Below are positions 470 through 59,962 of a stretch of 64,000 nt of DNA, piece after piece. Numbering within the stretch: position 1 is the stretch's first letter; the number at the start of each line of letters is the position of its first letter. The notes under the pieces were generated by a model. It had not been told where the DNA came from, did not search any database, and was given only the letters and a program-made list of their open reading frames with translations. This DNA is from a virus. The stretch spans positions 32,403 through 96,402 of IMG/VR virus record IMGVR_UViG_3300027985_000661, one strand, 5' to 3'. A program made the translations under genes and the position numbers.

Positions 470-2911
470 ATGGCAAATAACGCATTAGTAAACATTCCCG
501 TACTTTCCGTTAATGGACTTACAGGTAATGTAAATATAACCTATACAGATTTAGGAGCTATAGAAGAAGCTCCTAATGATGGTAGTATATACGCAAGGCA
601 GAATGAAGGGTGGGTGATATCTAGCTCGGGCGTGCCCGCACCTGCATCAGATAACTACACTTATTCATATAGAAATAATGATTGGGTAAGAACAGTATAT
701 AGCAACTACGCTAGTAATATTATTATTAATAAATCTACTTCTGAGACTAGACAAGGTTTACAAAATAAGTTAGATGCTTTACCTAAAGATTTAAATGGCG
801 GTACCTTAACTATAGTTCTAGATGCAGGAACCCATTCTGGAGATGGTACCTCATTGAAGGTATCTGGATTTACAAATTGTACTATTGAAATAAAAGGTTC
901 TGGAATATACACATCTGGGCAACAAGCGCCAACTGTATGGACAGGTTCTTTACTGGAAGTGAATAATATCCCCCATAGTATAACTATAGAAAAAATACAT
1001 TTTTTGGATTCACTAGATCTTAAAAATATTAATAATATATACATAAAAAATTGTTCATTTGGAACAGGGTATGTAAATATTGCTTCAGGTTCTAAAACTA
1101 ATTGTTATATATTTGATAGTTTCTTCAATAATAATATATTAGGGTACTTTAACGCAAGAACCAATAATGTAATATTAGATAGTGTAACAGGGAGCGTAAC
1201 TTCATATTTCATACCTACTTCTCCTGGTAGAGTTTTAAGTATACAATATACAGGTTTTGATTATGTGGCGTTTTTTAGTGGACTAGATCCGGTAGGGGAC
1301 AGTACCGCTAACGATAACTTTTATTTTGGCAAATATGGTGAGAAAATAGAAAGTATTGAAGAAGCCCCTAATGATGGAAATATATATGCTAGGCAAAACG
1401 AAGGATGGTCAATACTCCCAAGTTCAGGCATTTCCGCCCCAGCCGCGGATGGATATACCTACTCATATAAAAATAATGATTGGGTTAGGACAGTATATAA
1501 TAGTCATGGTAGTAATATAGTAGTTACTAAATCTATTGTTGAGACTAGGCAAGACCTCCAGGATAAATTAGATGCACTGCCTAAAGATTTAAATGGGGGT
1601 ATCTTATATGTCTCTTTAGCTGGAGGTACCCATACAACAGACGGTGTAGATTTGGAGATAGAAGGTTTTAGAAATGGATCAGTAATAGTGGCAGGTGGCG
1701 GTACTTACGTACCTGGACAACCAGCTTCAGCAGTATGGGTAGGATCTTTCATAAATATGTCAAATTTAAAAACTTATACTGTTGTAGAGAGGATTCATTT
1801 TTTAAATTCATTAAATATATATAACTGTCCTGATGTATATATAAAAAGTTGTTCTTTTGGAACTGGATATGTATATACTAATAATTCAGCTAGAGAAAAT
1901 ATATATTTATATGATTGTTACTTTGACAATAATATATTAGGCTATTTTAATGGAAAAGAAAGCCATGTCATTTTAGACAGTCTTACTGGAAATATAACAG
2001 CTTACAATTTCCGCACTAATTACGGAAGTACTTTAAAAATGGAGTATACAGGATTCGATTATACTACTTTCTTTAGTGGTTTAGATCCAGTGGGAGATAG
2101 CGCATCCAATGATAATTTTTATTTTGGTAAGTATGGAGAAACTTCACCGGGTATAGAAGAAGCACCTATAAATGGAAGTGCCTATGTTAGAAAAGATGGC
2201 GGTTGGGAAGTAAGTGATGCTAGTTATTTAGAAAACGATGCAGTATATTATATGGTTGCCGGTACAACTCATACCGATATAAATTCTTTTCTAGATACCC
2301 TACCTAAAAATTTGGGGGGTAAGCATGTTAGATTTTATTTTTCAGAAGGTTTTATGGATATGGAATGGACTGACAATGTTAATTTTAATGAGTTTTATAA
2401 TGGTAATATATCCTTTTTGAATAGTGCTTCTATTGACAACTCTTTAAATATATATGAGAGCATTAAGTTTAATAATTGCAGTAGTTTAAATATTAATTTT
2501 TATAGATTTAGTATTACAAAAACTGGAGGGGCTTCTAATACAACCTTTATAGAACTGACAGATAGTTTATCTATTAATGTTGAATTTGATCGAATAGCAT
2601 TTATATATAGTGTTGCTGGGACTTCAAGTTTGGTTTACTCTCCTAATGCAAGTATTATAAATTTTTCCGAGTGTAGTATTACAGGCGTGACAGGATTTGT
2701 AACTACAAGTACTAGAAAGGCAGCCTCTATTGAATTACATATTTATAATTGCACAGGAGATTCTACTTATATTATATATAAATCATTTGCAGAACAGACT
2801 ATATATTCACCTTTCAATATATATACAGATGGGATATCCTCTATATATACTACAGGAGTAGCAGTTTCAGGAGTCCCTTATACATTGTCAACCTACACAA
2901 TAGCACCTTAA
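470..2911 (+). CDS. Tail fibre/spike protein with three tandem ~266-aa modules, each led by a fibritin-foldon-like motif
   Basis: [36 protein letters not shown] and [18 protein letters not shown] resemble the T4 foldon [31 protein letters not shown] repeats; beta-helix-like composition; lies in the tail module. Confidence 0.75.
   Translation: [813 protein letters not shown]
560..2152 (+). repeat. Intragenic tandem duplication (units start at 560, 1355 and 2153; period 795-798 nt)
   Basis: Near-identical peptides in units 1 and 2 ([47 protein letters not shown]); the third unit is more diverged. Confidence 0.9.
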
Positions 2912-2912
2912 T

Positions 2913-3584
2913 ATGATAGGAAATTTAATATCTAATATAAAAGACGCGATCACTATAATATCTATAGTTGTCACGCTAGGCCTAGGATACTGGGGTAAGG
3001 TACAACAAGAAGAGGCAAGTAGGGCTACTAATAACCTTTATTCTAAAACGGTAGAGTGGAAGGACGAGAAAGGGAGGTTAGTGACGGAAGTAACAGAGTT
3101 ACGTTACACTACTAAAGAGTTGAAGGATATAGCTAAACTAGACTCTACTAAATTAAGTAGGGCACAGAAAGATTTGCTACAGGCTAACAATTTAGTTAAA
3201 GAACTTAAACTTAAAGAACGTAATGTAGAAAGTGTTAATATAGCCGATTTAAGAGTACATAACGACTCTTTGGTATCTACTATAACGTACGATAAAAATA
3301 ACAAATTAGAAGCCCTAAAACCTATCAAAACAGAACATTTATATATAGATTTTAAAGTAGAAGGTGATACCGTACTTGTTGATCATAAATATAATGTTAA
3401 TATTAATACTGTAGTTAGAAGGGAAAGGGATAAAGTAACTAAAGCAGGCAATCCTAGATTTTTTATTGCTAGATGGGTAAACCCTAGATGGCAGTATTCT
3501 GCTATTAATGTAGCAGATGATGATAAGGCTAAGATAGACTCCGCTATACATATTAACTTTCAAAATAAAAAAGGAAAGAGATGA
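2913..3584 (+). CDS. Membrane-anchored coiled-coil protein (possible spanin-like lysis component)
   Basis: N-terminal hydrophobic helix ITIISIVVTLGLGYW followed by a coiled-coil; function inferred only. Confidence 0.4.
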   Translation: MIGNLISNIKDAITIISIVVTLGLGYWGKVQQEEASRATNNLYSKTVEWKDEKGRLVTEVTELRYTTKELKDIAKLDSTKLSRAQKDLLQANNLVKELKLKERNVESVNIADLRVHNDSLVSTITYDKNNKLEALKPIKTEHLYIDFKVEGDTVLVDHKYNVNINTVVRRERDKVTKAGNPRFFIARWVNPRWQYSAINVADDDKAKIDSAIHINFQNKKGKR

Positions 3585-4333
3585 TTTTTGAAACATTAAA
3601 TACTATTGTAAATGATATCTTAAAAATAGCTAGGGGATCTGAAGTATCCTCTAGTGAGCCTATATCTAAAAGGCAAGTAGAGAATTGGGTTCATCAATAC
3701 AGAGCGTTACTATTATCTAGAGATTTAGAAAAAGGATATTACCCTAATCCTGCTTATATACAAGAGATACCTTTATTACAAATAGAACAAGTACGAAGAG
3801 AAGGCGGGGGAGCTTTAAATGCCCAGTCTTTTCCTTATACATTTGACTTCCCATTACAGGCTGGGGATAGGCAAGTAGGTAATGAGTATTTTCTTAGGAC
3901 TGTGCTTGATATACCTAAAGTAATAGATATAAATTATAAACCCGGGTTTACGTACATAGGGGATACTTCTGGTAATGAATATCAATTTGTACCACAGCAC
4001 AGGGAAATATGGCAGCAATATAAAAGATATACCTCTAATTCTACTTTGAGCTTTGAATTAAATAATAAGATATATCTTACTAATAACAATCCTGATATAG
4101 AGTATATATCTATAAGAGGTATATTTGAAAATCCTATGGAGGTAGGTAGGTTCCAAAATCCAGTAACAGATTTACCATTAGCAGATTGGGACACTCCTTA
4201 CCCTATCCCTAATAACCTTCTCCCTACTCTAAAAGGAATGATACTTGAGAAAGAATTAAAAATAGAAATATCTTCTCCTAACGATGATAAGAATGATAGT
4301 GATCACGGGTTAAGTAATAAAGCAGAAAAATAA
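3581..4333 (+). CDS. crAss-like tail ring/tubular protein
   Basis: Size, motifs (WVHQYRALL, ISIRGIFENP, YPIP) and position in the ring-IHF-ring-muzzle block typical of Crassvirales. Confidence 0.7.
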   Translation: MIFETLNTIVNDILKIARGSEVSSSEPISKRQVENWVHQYRALLLSRDLEKGYYPNPAYIQEIPLLQIEQVRREGGGALNAQSFPYTFDFPLQAGDRQVGNEYFLRTVLDIPKVIDINYKPGFTYIGDTSGNEYQFVPQHREIWQQYKRYTSNSTLSFELNNKIYLTNNNPDIEYISIRGIFENPMEVGRFQNPVTDLPLADWDTPYPIPNNLLPTLKGMILEKELKIEISSPNDDKNDSDHGLSNKAEK

Positions 4334-4334
4334 T

Positions 4335-4805
4335 ATGGCATTTTATAGCAGAGGACCAAATAAAGTTCAGAAACCTTATGTTCTAAAAGATATGTATTTA
4401 GAATACATTAAAGACAAGGAAGAAGGCTCTCCCTATTATATATCATATAATAAATTTGTTACTATATGTACCATGTATTATAAATCAATGGCAGAGTATA
4501 TTAAGGAAGGTAAACTATATTTATTGCCCTATAAGTTAGGGGAGGTTTCGGTATTAAAGAAGAAACCAAAAAACATGACAAGGGAAACAATGTCATTAGA
4601 TTGGGAACAAACCCAAAAATTAGGAAAGCAAGTCTACCATACCAATGATCATACTAATTACTACAAGTATGTTTTTTCATGGGGAAAATTAAGAGCCCAC
4701 TTTAAACATAAAGGTAGTTATAGAATGGTATTTACAAGAGAACATAAAAGAGATTTGGCAAAGAAGATTAAATCAGGAGAATACGATTATTTTGAAATAG
4801 ATTAA
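4335..4805 (+). CDS. crAss-like IHF/HU-related protein
   Basis: LPYKLGEVSVLKKK, SLDWEQT and YHTNDHTNYY motifs; position between ring-protein genes. Confidence 0.65.
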   Translation: MAFYSRGPNKVQKPYVLKDMYLEYIKDKEEGSPYYISYNKFVTICTMYYKSMAEYIKEGKLYLLPYKLGEVSVLKKKPKNMTRETMSLDWEQTQKLGKQVYHTNDHTNYYKYVFSWGKLRAHFKHKGSYRMVFTREHKRDLAKKIKSGEYDYFEID

Positions 4806-24987: not shown

Positions 24988-25242
24988 ATAACTCCTTTAA
25001 TTGCTGGGAACTCCTATAATAGAGTATAGGGCAATCAGCAGCCAAGCTTCGAAAGAAGAAGGTTCAACGACTAGTCCGGCACGTTAAAAAGTGCGGTAGA
25101 AGGACGTACATCCAAGTGGATGGAAATGGGGAGCACCTTACTAGATAATGCTAAAGGTGAAGATATAGTCTAGTCTGTATGGTAACATACAGCAGTTCAT
25201 AAGAGAACGGGTACAGATTAACGACCTGTATTGAATATTACG

Positions 25243-27922
25243 TGACATTGATAAATTGTATTTTATACGCCATAATTATACCAAAGATGGATATAAGATA
25301 GAGTACTTAACTGATGACAATTCTACTCTTGAAGAAAGAATGGAGGCGTATGCAGAAGAAGTATTAAAAGATAGATTTAAAGATATTAAAAGAAAGTATA
25401 AAGGTGAAGAAATAGATAAGAGGATTAAACTTGAAATACTTAATTGGAAAAACAATAATAGAATTAGTTTTGAAAAAAGAAGTATTAAAGCTCAAAATAC
25501 TAAAGAAGCTGTACAGAATAGGTTATTAGATATGTATTTTGATATTTATAGGGATAGTAAGCATGCTGCACATAGAACTCAACCTTTAGGATATGGAGCC
25601 GACCAATTGAAAAAGCTTGCAAAAGATATAAGAAAATGGAATGGTACTATAAGAACTGATAAAGAAGGAAATGTAATAGAAACAGACGTTGAATCACTTA
25701 AATCTACTACTCCAGTATTTAACTTAGATGTTAAAGCTAGGTATAAATTAGGTAAAGCTTTAGGTTCTTATGCTCTTTCTAACGTTCACCATGCTTTAGG
25801 TCAGACAGTAGGACTTTCCCTTAACCAGAATATAGGATCTGGAAACCTAAATGAATTTGGAAATACCAGTCTTGCAGGATTATTAGGTAGGGATAATGAG
25901 TATATAATGGAGTGGTTCTCTGCTCTTATTGATGCTCACGTTGATATAGCAGCCGATCCTTTCATTTACTTCTTAAATGCCAATGATTATACAGTTAAAG
26001 AACTTTCGTTACTATTAAGAGCCGGTGTTGGCGGTATTAAGACGTTTAAATTTATAGCCCAACCTATACTGTCTTCTATTGCAAAAGAAGTAGAAAATGC
26101 TAAAAATAATATAGGTCTTGATATTCGAATTGCCGATGTTGTAGCTTCAATTAGAAAGAAATATGAAGCACAAGCTAGAAAACATGGAGTTTCGTATGTA
26201 GAGTATAACCCCTCTATAGATAATTTCGATTCTATATTAAATGAAGCAGAATTAGAAGATGCTTTTAAAGAATCTGCAAAAGAGAATCCAAAAGGAAGTT
26301 TTTACGTACAACAATTAAGGGTATTAGATGCTTTCCAAAGTATATCCTTACCTGCCCAGATGCTATCAGAAGCTGTAATGGCTAGTAGGATTGATACTAA
26401 GAAATTTGGTACATCGTTCTCAGAGGTAGAGAATTATACTATTAGAGTACAGAAAGCTTTAGATGACGAGGCAAAAGGAGCGGGAATTCAAGGTTTCAAG
26501 AAGTTTATTGAAGATACTTATTTAGGTGCCTATACCAACAATAGTATAGATCTATCTTATGGTATGTTATCTAATATATCTTTAGAGACCAAGCCTGCTT
26601 TTCGTAAAGCTGTTAGAAATATCTTAACAAGTGTAAATAAGAGGTATACTGCAAGTGAGAAACTAATAAAGACAGTATCTGATGAGATATATACTAACCT
26701 TACTGCTGCTTATTTTAAAGAAAAAGGTATACTTGAAGAAAGTATGATCAAATCGCTTATATATGGAAATAACAGTATTCCTAAAAGAGTAGAGGATATA
26801 AAAAATGGCAGTATTAAAGGATTTGAGAAGTATAAAGACTCAGGATTACTTTCTAAATTAGTACCTTACTATAAGCAGGATGCTCCTGATATGTTAATAT
26901 TTAATAAGCCTGATGATAAGTATGAAAAGGATTCGTTAGTTAGATCTTGGAAAGATATGGCAAACAGTACTAATCCAGATGTTAGAGCTTTTGCACAAGA
27001 TTTATTCTACTACTCCTATTTAACTAGTGGTTTTAAAAATACTCTTAATTCATTTTACGATCTCGCCCCTAGAGAATTATTAATAGATGAGGGCTATAAT
27101 GAGTTTATTAAAGAATATTTTAGTAAACTTAACGATCCTGATTATTTTGATATGTTCTTAGATGAATTCTACTTAAATAGTTGGAATAATAGTGAGTTAG
27201 TACCTGAAATTAAGGATAAGAGTATTAAAAGTAAGAAAAGTGCTAGTAAAGGAGGTACATACATGCTATTTACTGATAATATTTCTTTTTATGTAGGTAA
27301 GAATAATAAAGGCCAGTCTATTTATAGACCTTATATTAAGTATAAAGGGCCTGAAGGTTTAGAACTATATAAGTATACAGGTACTATATCAGAAAGAGGC
27401 AAAGAATTTGCAATTTATTATAGGGTAGAAAAGAAAGGTTATAATAAGAATGGATTTGTCGTAAAAGAGAATTTAACTAAAGGTACAATATTCTCTTCTA
27501 ATAGGACTGGATTACCTGATAGCGTTACTAAATATCTAAACCCTACTAATATATCTTCTATAGCGAATGCTAAAAATAAAGACGGTATTAAAATATTCGA
27601 TTTCCTAAGTAAGGCAGATTTCGTTAATATTGAGGATATGGTAGTGTCCCAATATAAAAATGATATAAGGGATTTCGATTCAGAAACACAGGCTAAAATA
27701 AACAGAATTAGACCTTTAGATTTGACCGATGAAGCCACTAAATTATTTAGTACCCAAGAGATTGTGACTACTAGTTTAGATATACAAAAAGGTTTCTATA
27801 CTTTGAATAATAATAAAATTGTATTTATTGATAAAATAGAAGAAGATTCTTATTTGGTTGAACAGTGGGGATACCAAACACCTACTTCTGAACAGATAGA
27901 TGCTAATATGAAAGAATGTTAA
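25243..27922 (+). CDS. Virion RNA polymerase, exon 2 (spliced product about 4322 aa from 14126)
   Basis: Frame continues DIDKLYF; QNRLLDMY and SALIDAHVDIAADP motifs. Confidence 0.9.
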
Positions 27923-50222: not shown

Positions 50223-51515
50223 TTATGTATTTTTATTTTTTCTTTTATTTATAATACTTTTATATTTTTTGGTAGTAATGAACTTCCAATTTTTATCTTC
50301 TTTTATAGTGTCTTTACAAGAGTCTAAATTTATAGAAACTGTTATATTTCTATTTTCAGTATTATATATATAGTATCTTTTTTCTGGTTTTTCTACTTTA
50401 GTTACTTTTTTATTTTTAGTAACATTTACAGGCTTTGTATTTTTAACTAGCCTTCTCATTTTTCGATTTGCACCTTCACTGCTATTCATTACTGGTAAGG
50501 AATCATAGTAACCATTACCTGCTTTTTTCGCATCTTTCCATGCTTTTTTCGTGCAGTATTCCCATTCTTTATCTTTTGATATTAATATATCTGCGTTTTT
50601 TCTTGAAGTTCTAATACAATTAACTCCTTTAACTAGACATACTAATGATTTTGGGTTTTTAGTAATTTTTCTTTTACTTTTTTCATTTTTTAAAGTGGTA
50701 TAATCAATGTAATCGCATTTTATTTTTGTACCCTTATCTTTATTATAAAGGGCTAACATTTTGTTATATTTCCCTTTAAACAAGTCTTTTAAAATGTCTT
50801 TTTCTTCAGTATGCGTAGTTTTCGGGTCCAAATATTTTAAAATCCCTACTACAGAACTAAGTCTTTTTGGGTTATTTACATTTTCGTATTTTTTACCCAA
50901 ATTTAGTTTATTTGTAGTTTCTTTTTTATTAGTAAAATTAGGTTTAGAAGTATAAATCCATTCTTCTAATTTAGGGTATCTTCTTTTCCAATATTTAGGA
51001 CGTTGACCATAGTCTTCCACTACATACCCAAGCAGCATTTTTAGCCTCTCCATTAAATCTGGGTTTATCTTTTTTTTAAGCTTATCTAATGGGGATTCTT
51101 TTTTAAGTACAGAATATTTGTATAAAGCTAAATAATCGTTTGTTTGTACTTCTGCGTACTCTTCATCTACTACTATAAAAATAGTATTATGTTTGCTAAT
51201 TTCTTTTTTTAACTCTTTAAGAGTAGGGGTGTAATTAAGGTCTATATGTTCTAAAGGAGATAAGTATTTTTTACCCTCTTTATTTGTATCGTATAGTTTT
51301 AACATTCGTTGAGTTTCCCTAGCCGTCTTAATGTTTAATTTATGTAGCATATTTCCAGCAACTATACTATTAGCTACTTTTTTAGCTTTTTTTCTTTTAG
51401 CTTTTTTTACTTTTCTATTTTCAGATAGCGTATTGTTTTTTTTAGATGCGGTAGTATTTAAGTGCTCCAGCTCCGCCACTTTTTGTATCTTTGCGAATTT
51501 AGCCTTCATTGCCAT
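50223..51515 (-). CDS. Lysine-rich hypothetical protein (likely start MAMKAK at 51515)
   Basis: Long basic ORF; the upstream ATG at 51563 falls inside a tRNA-like element. Confidence 0.6.
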   Translation of the reverse strand: MAMKAKFAKIQKVAELEHLNTTASKKNNTLSENRKVKKAKRKKAKKVANSIVAGNMLHKLNIKTARETQRMLKLYDTNKEGKKYLSPLEHIDLNYTPTLKELKKEISKHNTIFIVVDEEYAEVQTNDYLALYKYSVLKKESPLDKLKKKINPDLMERLKMLLGYVVEDYGQRPKYWKRRYPKLEEWIYTSKPNFTNKKETTNKLNLGKKYENVNNPKRLSSVVGILKYLDPKTTHTEEKDILKDLFKGKYNKMLALYNKDKGTKIKCDYIDYTTLKNEKSKRKITKNPKSLVCLVKGVNCIRTSRKNADILISKDKEWEYCTKKAWKDAKKAGNGYYDSLPVMNSSEGANRKMRRLVKNTKPVNVTKNKKVTKVEKPEKRYYIYNTENRNITVSINLDSCKDTIKEDKNWKFITTKKYKSIINKRKNKNT

Positions 51516-51556
51516 AATATATATATTTAAGTTTAAAATAAGGATATTATATCCTA

Positions 51557-51620
51557 GGGGCATTGCTGGGTTCGAACCAGCCTGCTAAATATCTATTTAG
51601 TTTTCTCCTCTGAAATGCCT
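51557..51620 (-). ncRNA. Truncated tRNA-like element (acceptor plus T arm)
   Basis: GGCATT/AATGCC acceptor; perfect T arm GCTGG-TTCGAAC-CCAGC; no D stem; CTAAAT-AGAT-ATTTAG in place of the anticodon arm. Confidence 0.6.
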
Positions 51621-52794: not shown

Positions 52795-52814
52795 GTTTGA
52801 TTTTTAAGTTTTTA

Positions 52815-53041
52815 TAACTTACGATAATCTCTCCTAGTTATCATTGAGCCCCTTTTCAATTTACTGGCGTTATGGTTTCCACCTAGGGGAACGAACATGG
52901 TATCGTATCAGCTTGCTTTTTCATGTTACTTACTAGGCAAGAACCTTTCGTCTCGTGCTCCGCTGCTCGCTTTTTTCTACTATAGCAGGCTATGCCTTTT
53001 TCTTAGTACAGTGGCCGACAGGCATATACGTTACGCTATAA
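52815..53041 (-). ncRNA. Candidate structured intergenic RNA
   Basis: GC-enriched gap with no ORF; TATAGC/GCTATA, TATGCCT/AGGCATA and TACGATA/TATCGTA stems. Confidence 0.35.
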
Positions 53042-53051
53042 TATAGTTTGA

Positions 53052-54092: not shown

Positions 54093-54542
54093 TTATCCCA
54101 ATTTTTCGTTTAATAACTCACAAAATTGAGAAAGTTCTTCTAATTTCTTAATTGCACGCATAGTGGCATTACGCATGCTTGTGTTGAAATCTTTTGCATA
54201 AGCTTCGGCTACTGCCGCATCTCCTGCCCAAACATTTGGTCCCATAGCAATTTTAGTTTGGTCTAATGGGATTTCGATTTCTTCAATTCCTTTGGCAGCG
54301 TTTTCGCCTTCATGCACCGGTTTTCCATCTTCTCTTACATGAACCCCTACTATTTTTAAAGCAGTGTTTGCATCATTAATTGATACTGCTTTTACCATAA
54401 ATCTTTCAACTGTAGCAAATACTAAAGATCCTGGTTGAAGTAATTTGACACCTTCGTCATCTTTTGTATGTGTTCTTACTGTGAAAATTACTTGAGTACA
54501 GTGAATTCCTGTTACGTTTTGAAATGGAGTGTTAGTAACCAT
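54093..54542 (-). CDS. Hypothetical protein
   Basis: 149-aa ORF. Confidence 0.6.
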   Translation of the reverse strand: MVTNTPFQNVTGIHCTQVIFTVRTHTKDDEGVKLLQPGSLVFATVERFMVKAVSINDANTALKIVGVHVREDGKPVHEGENAAKGIEEIEIPLDQTKIAMGPNVWAGDAAVAEAYAKDFNTSMRNATMRAIKKLEELSQFCELLNEKLG

Positions 54543-54906
54543 AATTTTGATTTTTTAAAATGTTATTTAATAGTAAAAATTTTTCTTGTTTCGAGTTGCT
54601 ATATATCTCTTTGATTTCAACTCTAGAAGAAAGAATGTCTTTCTTATAATCTATAATAGGATAAAGTAATCTATACCAATTCCTGCTAAATATTTCTTTT
54701 GTTTCCCTATCGAATATTGAAGCTAAGGGTTTCCAATAATATGTAGCTTGGCCTTTTAATAGCACTTTAAAGAAGTAAAAATTATATATTTTTTTTACAT
54801 TAAGTAATTCAATTAATACTCCTCCTATTTTTTCTGTTTTATCTACCCCACCTATTATATAAGTAGGTATAGAAGTTTCACTTGAGATAATTTTATATTT
54901 TTTCAT
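54532..54906 (-). CDS. Hypothetical protein
   Basis: 124-aa ORF. Confidence 0.5.
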   Translation of the reverse strand: MKKYKIISSETSIPTYIIGGVDKTEKIGGVLIELLNVKKIYNFYFFKVLLKGQATYYWKPLASIFDRETKEIFSRNWYRLLYPIIDYKKDILSSRVEIKEIYSNSKQEKFLLLNNILKNQNYGY

Positions 54907-54924
54907 TTTTCTGAAGTTAAAAAA

Positions 54925-56025
54925 GGGGAGAACACTAGTTATGTCCGATAAAAGTGATGGCTCCCCCTATGTTATTCGATTTTCAGTTTTTTGAGTTATA
55001 TTACCTCTTCAAATTTTGTTCTTGTTACGAATTAATCGTTTAAGGCGTTTGCCCATAAAATATGTAAATTAAAAAATTACTCGATTTAAATGTTTATAGC
55101 ATGACTTGTAGGGATCTTGTTGATCTGGTTTAAATAAAATATAATAATTTTTCTCTATAATGTGCTGACTTTACACCATTAGACACCTATGCGAATGCCC
55201 TTAAAGATTCGAATTTCTCCGCCTGCTTTTCTTTTTTAGATATTATTATTATTTTTTAAATACTAGTCTGTAATTATTCGTCAATATATTATTACCTACT
55301 ATATAAAAGGTGGGATTTAAACTCTTTATACCCAACACATTTGGTAAACCAAGTGTTAGTCACGACGGTACCATAAGATACAAAATGCTTCGTTCACTTG
55401 CATACTTTTATATATTTACTATAAAATTTAAATTTTTTCATTCTTTGTTCCCTACTAACTTCTTTTTTAAAAAGAAATACTATATTACTTACGTTGTTAC
55501 ATAATATATTATTTACTTTACGCTTTTGGAGAACGGTTATATCTAGACTTACTTGCTTAAAGCTTTCTCATCTTAACCAAAATACCATTAAATAAAATAT
55601 CTATTCTAAATTTGTATCAATACAACCTACAATGTTCTTTTATTCTTATACATCCTACTCCCGACTATACTATATATAAAAACTTTTGGACAGTTTCTAG
55701 TCGCATTCAACAGGCTATCTTTCAAGCTTTTCCCTTAAGTAGTTGAAATATATAGTTTTAAGAGATATAGTTTACCTTCCTCCGTCATCCAAATGCGTAT
55801 TTAAATCTCCTCTCGGAATCATTTACTCTATACTATCTGCCGATTTAGTATAAATTCATGCCCTGAGTATCTTAGATAAAGAATAAAATAAGTATTGTTA
55901 CCAGACTTGCACTGGCCCTACCTCCTTGTTACAATTTATGAATTATTTTAATAATAATATTCCTATTTACTTGTTTACTTCGCTAATCAGTGCAGCGAAG
56001 CCTAACATATGGCACATTAGGTTTT
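54925..56025 (-). ncRNA. Candidate large structured non-coding RNA region
   Basis: About 1.1 kb with no sense-strand ORF of 60 aa or more; many nested inverted repeats. Confidence 0.4.
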
Positions 56026-56035
56026 TGGATATTCT

Positions 56036-57685
56036 TTAAAAATAGCGCGAATCTACTTTTTTATAATTTTTTCTAATAATTCCATCAGGGTTTGTATATG
56101 GGTACACGTTTCCTAATTTTGAGTAGTTGTCCACATATTTATTTATTCTCCCTTTTAGAGTTTTTAGTTCCATCATCACTTCAGTAGGGGAAAGCTCTTT
56201 ACTTTCTCCATAACTAAAGTCAGGCTCTACGATTAAAATAAGCTCAGGTTCTCCGTTTTTATTTGTACCTACTATGATAGTAGCACTTTTTACAAGCGGT
56301 TCTCTATATGCTATATCTAATATTTTTTGAGTTTGCACTGTTTTACCTTCTGAAGTAAGATACATTGATATATTCTTACCCAAAAGATATAAAGCGCCAT
56401 TTTTAGCATAGCCTATGTCTCCTGTTCTTAATTTTCCTACATAATTTTCATTTAATAAGAAGTTCTTTCTAGTGTGATCGGATGTTAAATATCCATCTGC
56501 CATATCTACACATTCTATAAAAACTTCCCCAATTTCACTTTCTGTATCTTCGCTTATAGTTATTTTATCCTCAATTTTAGGAATAATACCTATATTTTTT
56601 GGTAAATAAAAATAAGATTTTTTGCCTACATATGTTGCAACTTCTGTCATTGTATATAATACAGTATATTTGACTTTAATTGCGTTTAATATGCCTCTTC
56701 TTTTTATTTTACCATTAATGAAAATTTCTTTTAATTTTAATCCAAAACGTTTTTTGAATTCTTTTAAAACTAATAAATGTCTTAAAGGTTTCCAGAACCT
56801 TAGTAGTGGTGTTACCTCCCTTTCGAGAGCAGTTAAAATGTATTCTAATTTTTCCGCATTGATATACATTTGATCCACGTTTTTATTTTCCATACTTTTT
56901 AATATGGTATAATAATCTAAAGGATCCCCTATTATTACTTTCGCTCCCTTTAGCATAGGTATAATAATACCATTTGTAATATCGTAAAGTGAATTAAAAG
57001 GTTCAAAAGTTATAAATGTATCTTTGATTTTATGAGAGTCATCTTCTATTACTGTCCTTAGTCCTCTATAAATAGAGTGGTGGGATATTTTAGAAGCGTT
57101 GAACACACCTTTACTAATTCCATTATGAAATATAATACCATAATATTCTATTTTTTTAGGTGTAATGAATTCATTTTTAATAGGGATGGTTTCTTTGTTT
57201 TCCCATAATTTTTCTGTATTAATAAGATCTTTGAGCTCATTAAAGATTTTATCATAAGTTCTTATGGTACTTATATTCCCCATTTTATAATTAATTCCTT
57301 TTACAATAACATTTAATGTTTTAGGATTAATTGTTAATGTATTTCCTTCATTAGGGTTTTCCAATGCTTCTTCTGAAAGAAGTAATCTTTTAGAAGAACT
57401 TGGTTCAGCTACTGCCAATTTAGCTAGACTATCTGATTTAGGTTCTGTATTATCTAAAATAGTAAAATTAATTCCGTAACTTAAACATGCTATTATAGAT
57501 GCAGTCCCTACTAAAGGGTCGTCTGTTAAAATGGCAACTAAATCTTTAGAATCTATATCTAAGGATTGAAATAAATCTGAATATGTTTTCGCCCTAACTA
57601 ATATTTGTTTTCCAGTAATAGGTACTCCATCCTTCCCTATTATTGCAATATTATTAGATATTTCTCTTAAATATTTTTTGAACAT
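56036..57685 (-). CDS. Divergent AMP-binding (acyl-CoA synthetase/ANL superfamily) protein
   Basis: YTMTE (YGxTE-like), GEVFI, MADGY and LRTGDIG...LYLLGK motifs; P-loop degenerate (FHNGISKG). Confidence 0.7.
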   Translation of the reverse strand: MFKKYLREISNNIAIIGKDGVPITGKQILVRAKTYSDLFQSLDIDSKDLVAILTDDPLVGTASIIACLSYGINFTILDNTEPKSDSLAKLAVAEPSSSKRLLLSEEALENPNEGNTLTINPKTLNVIVKGINYKMGNISTIRTYDKIFNELKDLINTEKLWENKETIPIKNEFITPKKIEYYGIIFHNGISKGVFNASKISHHSIYRGLRTVIEDDSHKIKDTFITFEPFNSLYDITNGIIIPMLKGAKVIIGDPLDYYTILKSMENKNVDQMYINAEKLEYILTALEREVTPLLRFWKPLRHLLVLKEFKKRFGLKLKEIFINGKIKRRGILNAIKVKYTVLYTMTEVATYVGKKSYFYLPKNIGIIPKIEDKITISEDTESEIGEVFIECVDMADGYLTSDHTRKNFLLNENYVGKLRTGDIGYAKNGALYLLGKNISMYLTSEGKTVQTQKILDIAYREPLVKSATIIVGTNKNGEPELILIVEPDFSYGESKELSPTEVMMELKTLKGRINKYVDNYSKLGNVYPYTNPDGIIRKNYKKVDSRYF

Positions 57686-58057: not shown

Positions 58058-59962
58058 TTAAACAGCTTTTTCTAACTTCATGAAATCAATATTATTGAAT
58101 TCTAAGCCGGAAGGAATCATGGTCATTACTGTTCCTTTTCCTCCTTTTGCTTTAGCTTTGTCATTGTTTTCTCTTACTTTTTTAATGTAAGCATCCATTG
58201 CTTTTTTGAATTCTTTTTTCAAATCTTCATATTTAGCTACTTGGATTACTTTAATTTCGTTTTCAAATCCTTCTAAATGGCAATCCCATCCGATAGTTTT
58301 ACCTGTGGATTTTTCTACTCTTTGGGTAATTACAGCTACATATTTAGTTTCTTTTTTCTTTGCTGTATTTCCATTTCCACTAGCAGTCTTTGACTGGGCA
58401 TGTACCTTATTTTCCTTTCTTTTTTTTGTGTCGTTGTTATTGGTTTGTTTATTACTCCCAGTAGTTGCGGGTAACGCCTTCTCTCCTTCCTTTTTCTCAA
58501 TTGAAGCAGGTTTTCCTGGAAGTTCATTTTTAACTTTTAATTTAATTTTAAGTGAATCTCCCATTTCTTCTTCAGTTAATAATCCAGAAGAATGCATTTT
58601 TTTAATAACCCTGTTCATAATGTTATCAACTTTTGAATTGGGCCATTCTACTCCTGTTTCTACTGTAGCGGTTGTTTTTCCAGCTTTTGGTTTTTGAGCT
58701 GGTACTGATTTAATGCTATAAGAATAAGCTTTAATTAATTTGCGGATCCCTTCTTCTGCCTTTCTAAAGTCTTTGTCTTTTTCTTTATGGTAAAGAAATA
58801 GATTTTCGATTAACTTATCTAACATTGGGTTTCCTTTATTTTCCTTACTAATTAAATTAAGGAAATTAAGAGCTTTTTCTTTATCCCATACATGTCCATT
58901 CTTTTTATCTGAATAAAAGTGAATTAATTCTTGAATAGCCACGTGGTCTTTTTTAATACTTCTAAAATATAAAGCTCTTGCTTTTACAAGATCATCCGGG
59001 TTGCATGAATCCATACATTTTGTAGGGTTATTGAAATCTGAAGTTCCTACAAGTAGAGTAGTATTGAATTCATTTTTTACAGCTAAAGGTACTTTTTCTT
59101 CTGCTAATTCTTTACCTGAAATTAATTTATTCAAATCAACCCCTATTTTACCGGTTAATTTTTGAGCTTTAAACTCTGTTAAAAGTTCTTTTTCTTTTGT
59201 GTCTTTGTTTGCGTTTTTAAATTTAGTAGTTAAATTATTGATTGTAGATCTTAGATCTCTAATGCCTAAACTATAGTTATTCATTAGATCACATACTTTA
59301 TAGTAAATGGCTGCTTTTTCAGGCTCCCCTTTACTTTTTTCCCAGCTTTCTACTAATTCTTTTTGTTCCTCTTTAGTTAAAGGAACGTCCACTAATTGTG
59401 TGTATACTTCTTTTGTAGTATCGCTTACTTTTTGATCAGGGGCATAAGCGAGACCCTGTTCTATTTTTTTTTCTAGTTCGGTTTTTTCTTCTTTATAACC
59501 GGCTCCAGGTGATAAATTTTTTGTTTCTTCTTTGTTTGCTTTTTTTTCTTTGATTGCACTTGTTTTACCTAGAAAATCTGGGTTAAATGGAATTTTAATT
59601 TGTTTCGCATCTGGCGTTTTTAGTACATCTACAGTAGGGACAAGTTGTTCAAGTGTTTTCCCTTGTGTACTTACTTGCATTTTATCTTTTAAACGTGAAA
59701 TAGATAAAGCCATATATTTTTCAATAATAGCTTCAATTTCCATTTTTTTGCGGTAATAAATATTAGACGAAGTATTTGCTAAATTTTCAAATACTTTATC
59801 GTTGTTTTCGAATGTTACTCCTTTTTGAGTTAGTCCAGATAAAGCAATAGGTCTTGCTGATTCTCTTACTGAACATTCTCCATAATAAGTTGCTAAAGCA
59901 ATTAAATCTTGTATTGATGCGGCTTCTATTTTTTGCATATTTTTTAAATTTAAGTTTGACAA
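58058..59962 (-). CDS. Large K/E-rich hypothetical protein
   Basis: 634-aa ORF. Confidence 0.65.
   Translation of the reverse strand: MSNLNLKNMQKIEAASIQDLIALATYYGECSVRESARPIALSGLTQKGVTFENNDKVFENLANTSSNIYYRKKMEIEAIIEKYMALSISRLKDKMQVSTQGKTLEQLVPTVDVLKTPDAKQIKIPFNPDFLGKTSAIKEKKANKEETKNLSPGAGYKEEKTELEKKIEQGLAYAPDQKVSDTTKEVYTQLVDVPLTKEEQKELVESWEKSKGEPEKAAIYYKVCDLMNNYSLGIRDLRSTINNLTTKFKNANKDTKEKELLTEFKAQKLTGKIGVDLNKLISGKELAEEKVPLAVKNEFNTTLLVGTSDFNNPTKCMDSCNPDDLVKARALYFRSIKKDHVAIQELIHFYSDKKNGHVWDKEKALNFLNLISKENKGNPMLDKLIENLFLYHKEKDKDFRKAEEGIRKLIKAYSYSIKSVPAQKPKAGKTTATVETGVEWPNSKVDNIMNRVIKKMHSSGLLTEEEMGDSLKIKLKVKNELPGKPASIEKKEGEKALPATTGSNKQTNNNDTKKRKENKVHAQSKTASGNGNTAKKKETKYVAVITQRVEKSTGKTIGWDCHLEGFENEIKVIQVAKYEDLKKEFKKAMDAYIKKVRENNDKAKAKGGKGTVMTMIPSGLEFNNIDFMKLEKAV

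Follow-up and report, generated by a model that had tools for sequence, protein, structure and literature searches.

Introduction

Large ornate RNAs such as GOLLD and ROOL are known from phages and prophages, where they often lie near tRNA genes. RNAs that enable RNA polymerase to read through terminators have been described as putL and putR in phage HK022 and as EAR in Bacillus, and the early transcripts of T7 and T4 carry intercistronic hairpins that are RNase III sites and 3' stabilisers. The crAss-like phages rank with the most abundant of all known viruses, and to our knowledge no function is known for the long non-coding RNAs that they make. In the crAss-like Cellulophaga phage phi14:2, abundant and persistent long non-coding RNAs come from the intergenic regions g004-g005 and g005-g006 (Drobysheva et al., bioRxiv 10.1101/2020.03.07.982082). 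By analogy, this pair of RNAs appears to be the closest known case to the locus that we describe here, and it is found in the same genome arm. Both phages are crAss-like and have long gene-free stretches in the DNA-polymerase arm, several kilobases upstream of the polymerase and with the same reading direction, and the stretch in our phage is likewise a long intergenic region with the reading direction of the early or replication genes next to it.

Results

The window, that is, the whole stretch of DNA that was analysed, covers the right-hand 64 kb of an IMG/VR virus whose genome of 96,402 bp has a terminal overlap of 144 bp. The phage is very abundant in a hydrothermal vent metagenome, and the stretch is present in three DNA runs (probably the source samples), all identical and without variants; no RNA run is listed. 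In the phage collection all matches of its 1279-aa virion protein are to Crassvirales, with 26-28% identity, which points to a deep-branching crAss-like phage. Every gene from 32373 to 62992 is carried by the minus strand, and in this block an ORF-free region of 1129 nt (54907-56035, read on the minus strand) separates an ANL-like gene at 56036-57685 from a 124-aa gene at 54532-54906. The initial annotation had called it the largest non-coding gap of the window, and this is true for the whole 96,402-bp genome, where the runner-up is 603 nt long. The G+C content of the gap is 0.295 against a genome mean of 0.316, which is slightly under the mean and no enrichment. In A/T-rich genomes, structured RNA usually shows itself by a raised G+C; two other, short ORF-free gaps of the window, at 52795-53051 and 24988-25255, reach 0.40-0.41, compared with 0.32 for the genome.

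The gap contains no ORF, whether it is read with the standard code or with TAG as Q, TGA as W or TAA as Q, and no ATG-started ORF of at least 20 aa on either strand. The period-3 signal is 0.57, compared with 9.5-28.8 in genes of similar size, the three minus-strand frames hold 28, 33 and 38 stop codons against 34 expected at random, and the codon log-odds are negative throughout, so that the early judgement that about 1.1 kb are without a credible ORF is confirmed by alternative codes, periodicity, stop counts and codon usage alike. A decayed gene or paralogue was rejected, as neither the phage's own ORFs compared with the gap (tblastn) nor the gap compared with the genome (blastn) gave a match, and period-3 is missing. 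A group I or group II intron was rejected too: no intron model matches in the gap, and the ANL protein is full length in comparison with its relatives, to the invariant C-terminal SRYF. The Rfam intron model does detect an intron in a distant relative of the phage, a group I intron of 71 bits just after a polA fragment (L002, 12229-12445), and within the 64-kb window no group I intron was found by Rfam at gathering score.

The long-range stems, which were offered as evidence for a large RNA, do not hold up as such. The nested inverted repeats exist, but they are nearly pure A/T with 0-1 G-C pairs, and they do not exceed what dinucleotide shuffles give: the longest arm is 12 nt, which 15% of the shuffles reach, and the stems nest to a depth of 5, which 74% of the shuffles attain as well (their mean is 5.1). 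They are also absent from L012, the one syntenic relative of the locus that was recovered (see below). The folding energy of the whole gap against shuffles, a check that had been proposed together with an Rfam search, was ordinary (z -0.43 for the minus strand and +0.31 for the plus strand), and among 120-nt folding windows over the gap only those at both ends stand out. Rfam gave nothing at gathering score in the whole 64-kb window, only chance snoRNA-like matches at E up to 10 in 54700-56250, and nothing in L012 at E up to 5; the other large RNAs in Rfam (OLE, HEARO and raiA) have no match in the window or in L012. The search for a known family thus came out negative for window, gap and relative. 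On stems, folding energy and Rfam alone, the candidate would be rejected by the standards that the initial annotation had set for itself, ordinary folding energy being among the signs that it counted against an RNA.

No tRNA or tmRNA was detected by ARAGORN in the 64-kb window, and no tRNA in L012; the output of a relaxed run, a "tRNA with a 913-nt intron", is meaningless and was discarded. ARAGORN and RF00023 find no tmRNA in the gap, and this negative is meaningful since the same tools do detect one in phi14:2. In that genome (L011, KC821624) ARAGORN calls a tmRNA on the plus strand at 4031-4502, with the tag GSSVQKLAMVA*, which RF00023 scores at 46 bits (gathering score 47, E 3.8e-16) and for which no RNA feature is annotated in the record. 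The call sits in the left-arm region from which the abundant long non-coding RNAs were reported, the gene numbers of that paper not being mapped to coordinates. Another long intergenic stretch of phi14:2 (1620-1983) has a T-arm-like sequence, GCGAAGGUUCGAAUCCUUC, at about 1820-1845 on the plus strand that is not called as a tRNA. The window has a similar feature on the minus strand at 51564-51585, a perfect T-arm-like GCUGG-UUCGAAC-CCAGC one base before the ATG of a 446-aa gene (50223-51563), and here too ARAGORN finds no tRNA.

The gene upstream of the gap (56036-57685, minus strand) encodes a protein of 549 aa that is like ANL or AMP-binding enzymes, with 24 bits for Pfam PF00501, below the cut-off of 29.9. 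A word-based search found just two relatives of it, and a HMMER search with a profile of three sequences brought the family to 18 cluster representatives at E below 1e-30. Several of these are on contigs of 72-88 kb, so the members probably belong to phages. The family is small and environmental, with no member in the GenBank phages or in IMG/VR. One member, P0007, is also present in JGI and led to L012, a JGI contig of 5158 nt. The neighbours of 634 aa (58058-59962) and 149 aa (54093-54542), both on the minus strand, had no relatives among 5.8 billion proteins in the word-based search, yet the 149-aa protein matches a 152-aa ORF of L012 with 31% identity; the word-based search therefore misses relatives at the distance of L012.

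The synteny of L012 comprises a small ORF overlapping the start of the ANL gene, the ANL gene itself, a gap and three of the four downstream genes, with amino-acid identities of 31-39%. Its gap is 1128 nt long (2187-3314), ORF-free, and situated directly after the ANL-like gene, in the same place as the gap of 1129 nt in our phage. It has no period-3 signal, and stop codons at or above the random rate, and its G+C content is 0.39 against 0.27-0.31 in the coding flanks. The whole-gap folding z is -0.68, and local folding z follows the same pattern in both phages, with three peaks at the 5' end, in the core and at the 3' end only. The near-equal lengths are partly a coincidence, as the first spacer between the conserved parts is 59 nt shorter in L012 and the second 41 nt longer. 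L012 also has three pairs of inverted repeats of 10-12 nt, between 2189-2316 and 2965-3104, with spacings of 764, 771 and 777 nt; because the spacing is almost constant they cannot nest, and the trio may be due to chance or to a pseudoknot-like arrangement.

The two gaps share a core of 115 nt at 55300-55414 on the minus strand, a closed domain of three helices according to the RNAalifold consensus and the alignment with L012. The alignment pairs 55421-55304 of the window with 2738-2875 of L012 (blastn, E 6.8e-11), and compared with dinucleotide shuffles it has a z of 12.6 when global and 16 when local (121 nt in our phage and 139 nt in L012). In the RNAalifold structure the core is closed by helix P1 of 9 bp (55405-55414 with 55300-55309, minus strand), inside which there are a 3-bp hairpin in block A whose loop of 11 nt is invariant, a variable hairpin and the 15-bp P4. 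Block A, GUAUGCAAGUGAACGAAGCA (55386-55405, minus strand), holds the 11-nt loop AAGUGAACGAA and an AUG and is identical in L012 at 20 of 20 positions, although the adjoining proteins are only 31-33% identical. Block B, UAUAAAGAGUUUAAAUCCCACC (55309-55330, minus strand), is identical at 21 of 22 positions and mostly unpaired in the consensus fold. The hairpin P4 (55328-55363, minus strand) has a 2-nt AU bulge on its 3' arm, and both its architecture and the bulge are the same in L012.

All 54 cells of the 27 core pairs form standard pairs in both sequences, and nine of the pairs are changed on both sides, compared with 0-1 when the partners are slid by 1-3 columns, a contrast that is inflated by the fact that the structure was derived from the same two sequences as were tested. 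Even so, the double changes, four in P1 and five in P4, are hard to get by chance, and the G-U pairs of P4 are kept in both sequences. Seven cells of the core are G-U, which would be A-C mismatches on the opposite strand; they fit one strand only, and the core fold thus belongs to the minus strand, which is the sense strand of the genes.

With R1, a covariance model built from the core, one copy is detected in the phage genome and none in phi14:2 or in the distant relative G001. The latter has neither the ANL gene nor the gap. It does have an ORF-free gap of its own downstream of polA, 1345 nt long with a G+C of 0.39 (L002, 19857-21201), in which there is no tRNA, no Rfam match and no similarity to 54907-56035. 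The phage collection, searched by DNA and protein, holds no homologue of the gap; one candidate (H1) was dismissed, as it is located within an ORF and is not recognised by model R1. No homologue was found in viral_contigs with the ANL protein, the alignments A1 and A2, polA or four DNA patterns, nor in metagenome_contigs with A1, and genome_contigs searched with A1 and block A gave one match only, a chance one in Sphingobium. Eight matches to block A in viral_contigs were discarded as chance matches in coding DNA, and so were weak R1 matches in loci that had been picked for the exact block-A word, which are biased and lie in coding DNA.

The other two modules are found at the ends of the gap. 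At the 5' side a pair of hairpins (55978-56021 on the minus strand, made up of 56001-56021 and 55978-56000) begins 14 nt after the stop codon of the ANL gene and has no U-tract, with -15.9 kcal/mol and a z of -2.83. The 5' module, 91 nt in our phage and 89 nt in L012, gives a global alignment z of 3.1 against dinucleotide shuffles, and the twin hairpins are kept in L012 by compensatory changes, CCUAA/UUAGG corresponding to CCUAUC/GAUAGG and UUCGCU/AGCGAA to CCGCU/AGCGG. Two local hairpins pointed out earlier, the one at 55978-56000 and AACAC-TTGG/CCAA-GTGTT, are thus real, and both are conserved in L012. The terminator-like GGGGAG/CTCCCC-T6 is equally real. It is a compound hairpin at 54919-54968 on the minus strand that ends 12 nt before the ATG of the 124-aa gene (-15.6 kcal/mol, z -2.95), and it has the features of an intrinsic terminator, an 8-bp outer stem with five G-C pairs followed by U6; a simple terminator scanner missed it because the loop is longer than 8 nt. 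L012 has a hairpin of 13 bp at the corresponding end (3250-3301), 13 nt before the next ATG, without a U-tract, and the 3' hairpins of the two phages show no sequence similarity (z 0.0; 68 nt in our phage and 69 nt in L012).

Between the modules, Spacer I (527 nt, 468 nt in L012) and Spacer II (322 nt, 363 nt in L012) show no similarity, with z of -0.9 and -0.4 against shuffles. About 280 of the 1129 nt are conserved, and the approximately 850 nt between the modules are without detectable conservation. In the spacers, folding windows stay within about 1.7 sd of the shuffles, and a crude matched-helix test with anchored positions reached p 0.01 with one of its four settings, the other three giving 0.20-0.76. 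In the two sequences compared, covariation is seen solely in the 5' module and in the core.

A scan of the gap for sigma-70-like promoters gave the level of shuffles, the ECF-like motif G(T/A)AAC-N16-18-CGTA that is present elsewhere in the genome is absent from the gap, and no Bacteroidota-type TTTG/TAnnTTTG is found on its minus strand. GTAACAA, the -35-like half of the ECF-like motif, is found four times in the gap in the sense of the minus strand (55028, 55500, 55901 and 55932) and 17 times in the genome, the CGTA half being missing in the gap; as a signal of the gap it was dropped, since it is not enriched in L012.

Discussion

With proteins that are about 32% identical, neutral DNA must have been randomised many times over, and invariant blocks of 20-22 nt together with helices that are maintained by compensatory changes indicate purifying selection on RNA of the gene-sense strand. 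We think that the gap may well be a conserved region of non-coding RNA with short structured modules, which is read from the minus strand like all the genes around it. Transcription through the ANL-like gene most likely runs on into the gap, which is the simplest explanation as the first hairpins come 14 nt after its stop codon, too close for a promoter to fit in between. The product would be an untranslated RNA of about 1.1 kb that has the twin hairpins towards its 5' end and a large hairpin towards its 3' end, the latter being a U6 terminator in our phage. These structures could delimit or shield the ends of a stable RNA that is made by processing, and the functional part would be the central three-helix domain of 115-133 nt. 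In the consensus fold two invariant stretches of this domain are mostly or wholly unpaired, namely the loop of 11 nt and some 18 nt that precede the closing helix, and we hypothesize that a protein or a complementary nucleic acid is bound there. Between the terminator and the ATG of the 124-aa gene there is no space for a promoter, which makes some read-through necessary. The RNA may be a stable one that works in trans, or it may work in cis, for instance on termination.

The proposal of a phage non-coding RNA in the initial annotation has therefore to be divided. A conserved RNA element does exist, with three modules in a gap of the same size in a syntenic relative, but the A/T stems offered as evidence are a matter of chance and the ornate kilobase kind is not supported. 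This is also a methodological caution, since folding energy and conspicuous long-range stems both missed the parts that are actually conserved.

A narrower reading makes the core a regulatory RNA that acts in cis on the downstream genes, for example by allowing processive antitermination past the hairpin with U6, and takes the remainder as leader or spacer. It would account for the read-through that is required when the terminator leaves the downstream gene no promoter room, and a compact, conserved RNA of several hairpins does lie 330-370 nt upstream of the 3' hairpin in both phages; in addition, hairpins with T-runs precede many genes of this phage. Other genes that are preceded by terminators are however without the core, which is present in a single copy, the 3' hairpin of L012 has no U-tract, no antitermination RNA of Rfam matches, and about 500 nt of upstream spacer would be left unexplained. 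We consider this reading rather unlikely.

That the whole 1.1 kb should be one ornate RNA of the GOLLD, ROOL or OLE kind, with its helices kept while the sequence has diverged beyond recognition, is not supported and in our opinion quite improbable. The size of about 1.13 kb in both phages, the G+C enrichment of the L012 gap over its entire length and the single matched-helix setting with p 0.01 could be taken in its favour. Nor is an ordinary z decisive, since a folding z of -0.3 to -1.4, which is likewise unremarkable, was obtained for three ORF-free stretches taken from the left arm of phi14:2 (chosen by arm and not by the gene numbers of the paper), so that the z of a whole region discriminates poorly here. 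Against it are the ordinary folding of both gaps (-0.43 and -0.68), spacer windows that hardly depart from shuffles, three null settings of four in the matched-helix test, long-range stems at chance level, sequence conservation confined to the modules, and the missing Rfam match. The suggestion of a GOLLD- or ROOL-like RNA near tRNAs is thus left without support: besides folding energy and Rfam, the window has no tRNA, and some 850 of the 1129 nt are without sequence conservation and without robust structural conservation.

A DNA-level element is a further explanation, and the gap would then be a replication origin, a priming signal or a packaging site, with the blocks as protein sites and the hairpins formed in single-stranded DNA. 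A long A/T-rich non-coding stretch within the arm of the replication genes would be a fitting place for it, the invariant 20-22-nt blocks could be such sites, and perfect inverted repeats of at least 8 nt are somewhat over-represented (37 against 24 +/- 5 in shuffles). The gap has no iterons or repeat families, though, and the cumulative GC and AT skews show no inflection in it, their extremes being at genome positions 4040 and 64703. The conserved G-U pairs suit one strand only, and P1 encloses both invariant blocks, as it would in a folded transcript. Taken together, we find a DNA element very improbable.

Highly speculative is the thought that the RNA and the upstream ANL-like enzyme form a functional pair, in which the RNA core would be substrate, scaffold or regulator. 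The ANL gene is followed by the 1.1-kb RNA region in both genomic contexts that could be read, and we mention this long shot because the pair, if true, would be a phage RNA-enzyme module of an undescribed kind. It is hardly credible, finally, that block A is a tiny protein gene surrounded by untranslated regions, encoding MQVNEA plus nine residues in our phage and plus seven in L012: the ATG is at the same place in both and is followed by six identical codons, but the identity extends to every third codon position, even in the rare codons GTG and AAC, and to two nucleotides before the ATG, which fits a constraint at the nucleotide rather than the protein level, the peptides diverge completely past residue 6 and differ in where they stop, the reading frame of the conserved CGUGAYUAA downstream is not the same in the two phages, and block B and the covarying helices would be left unexplained.

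As a conserved non-coding RNA region, the locus offers a small and defined handle, a domain of about 120 nt with invariant unpaired stretches that has survived a divergence which left the neighbouring proteins a third of their residues. The core occupies a fixed place after the gene of an unusual adenylate-forming enzyme, and with further members it would define a new RNA family and a target for pull-down, deletion or antitermination assays.

Among known systems, the region differs from the RNAs of phi14:2 in that there is no similarity by sequence (blastn, phage collection) or by covariance model (R1), that the stretches of phi14:2 are about 360-690 nt long compared with 1.1 kb here, and that one of them holds a tmRNA-like gene, of which ours has none. 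Expression has been shown for phi14:2, and for our region it is predicted. With GOLLD and ROOL the locus has in common a large non-coding stretch in a phage with conserved RNA structure in at least a part of it, and it is unlike them in having no match to their models, no tRNA nearby, only about 280 of 1129 nt conserved and an ordinary folding energy. The core could be compared with putL and putR of HK022 and with EAR of Bacillus, which are also compact RNAs with several hairpins and a conserved bulge or loop, placed in cis upstream of a terminator that is to be read through; this resemblance is one of structure, as no model matches, the core is more than 300 nt from the terminator, and it is a single copy amid many terminators. 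The twin hairpins, finally, would flank a kilobase of non-coding RNA and do not separate two genes as the intercistronic hairpins of T7 and T4 do, but they are like these in being stable, without a U-tract and directly after a stop codon in what would be a polycistronic phage transcript.
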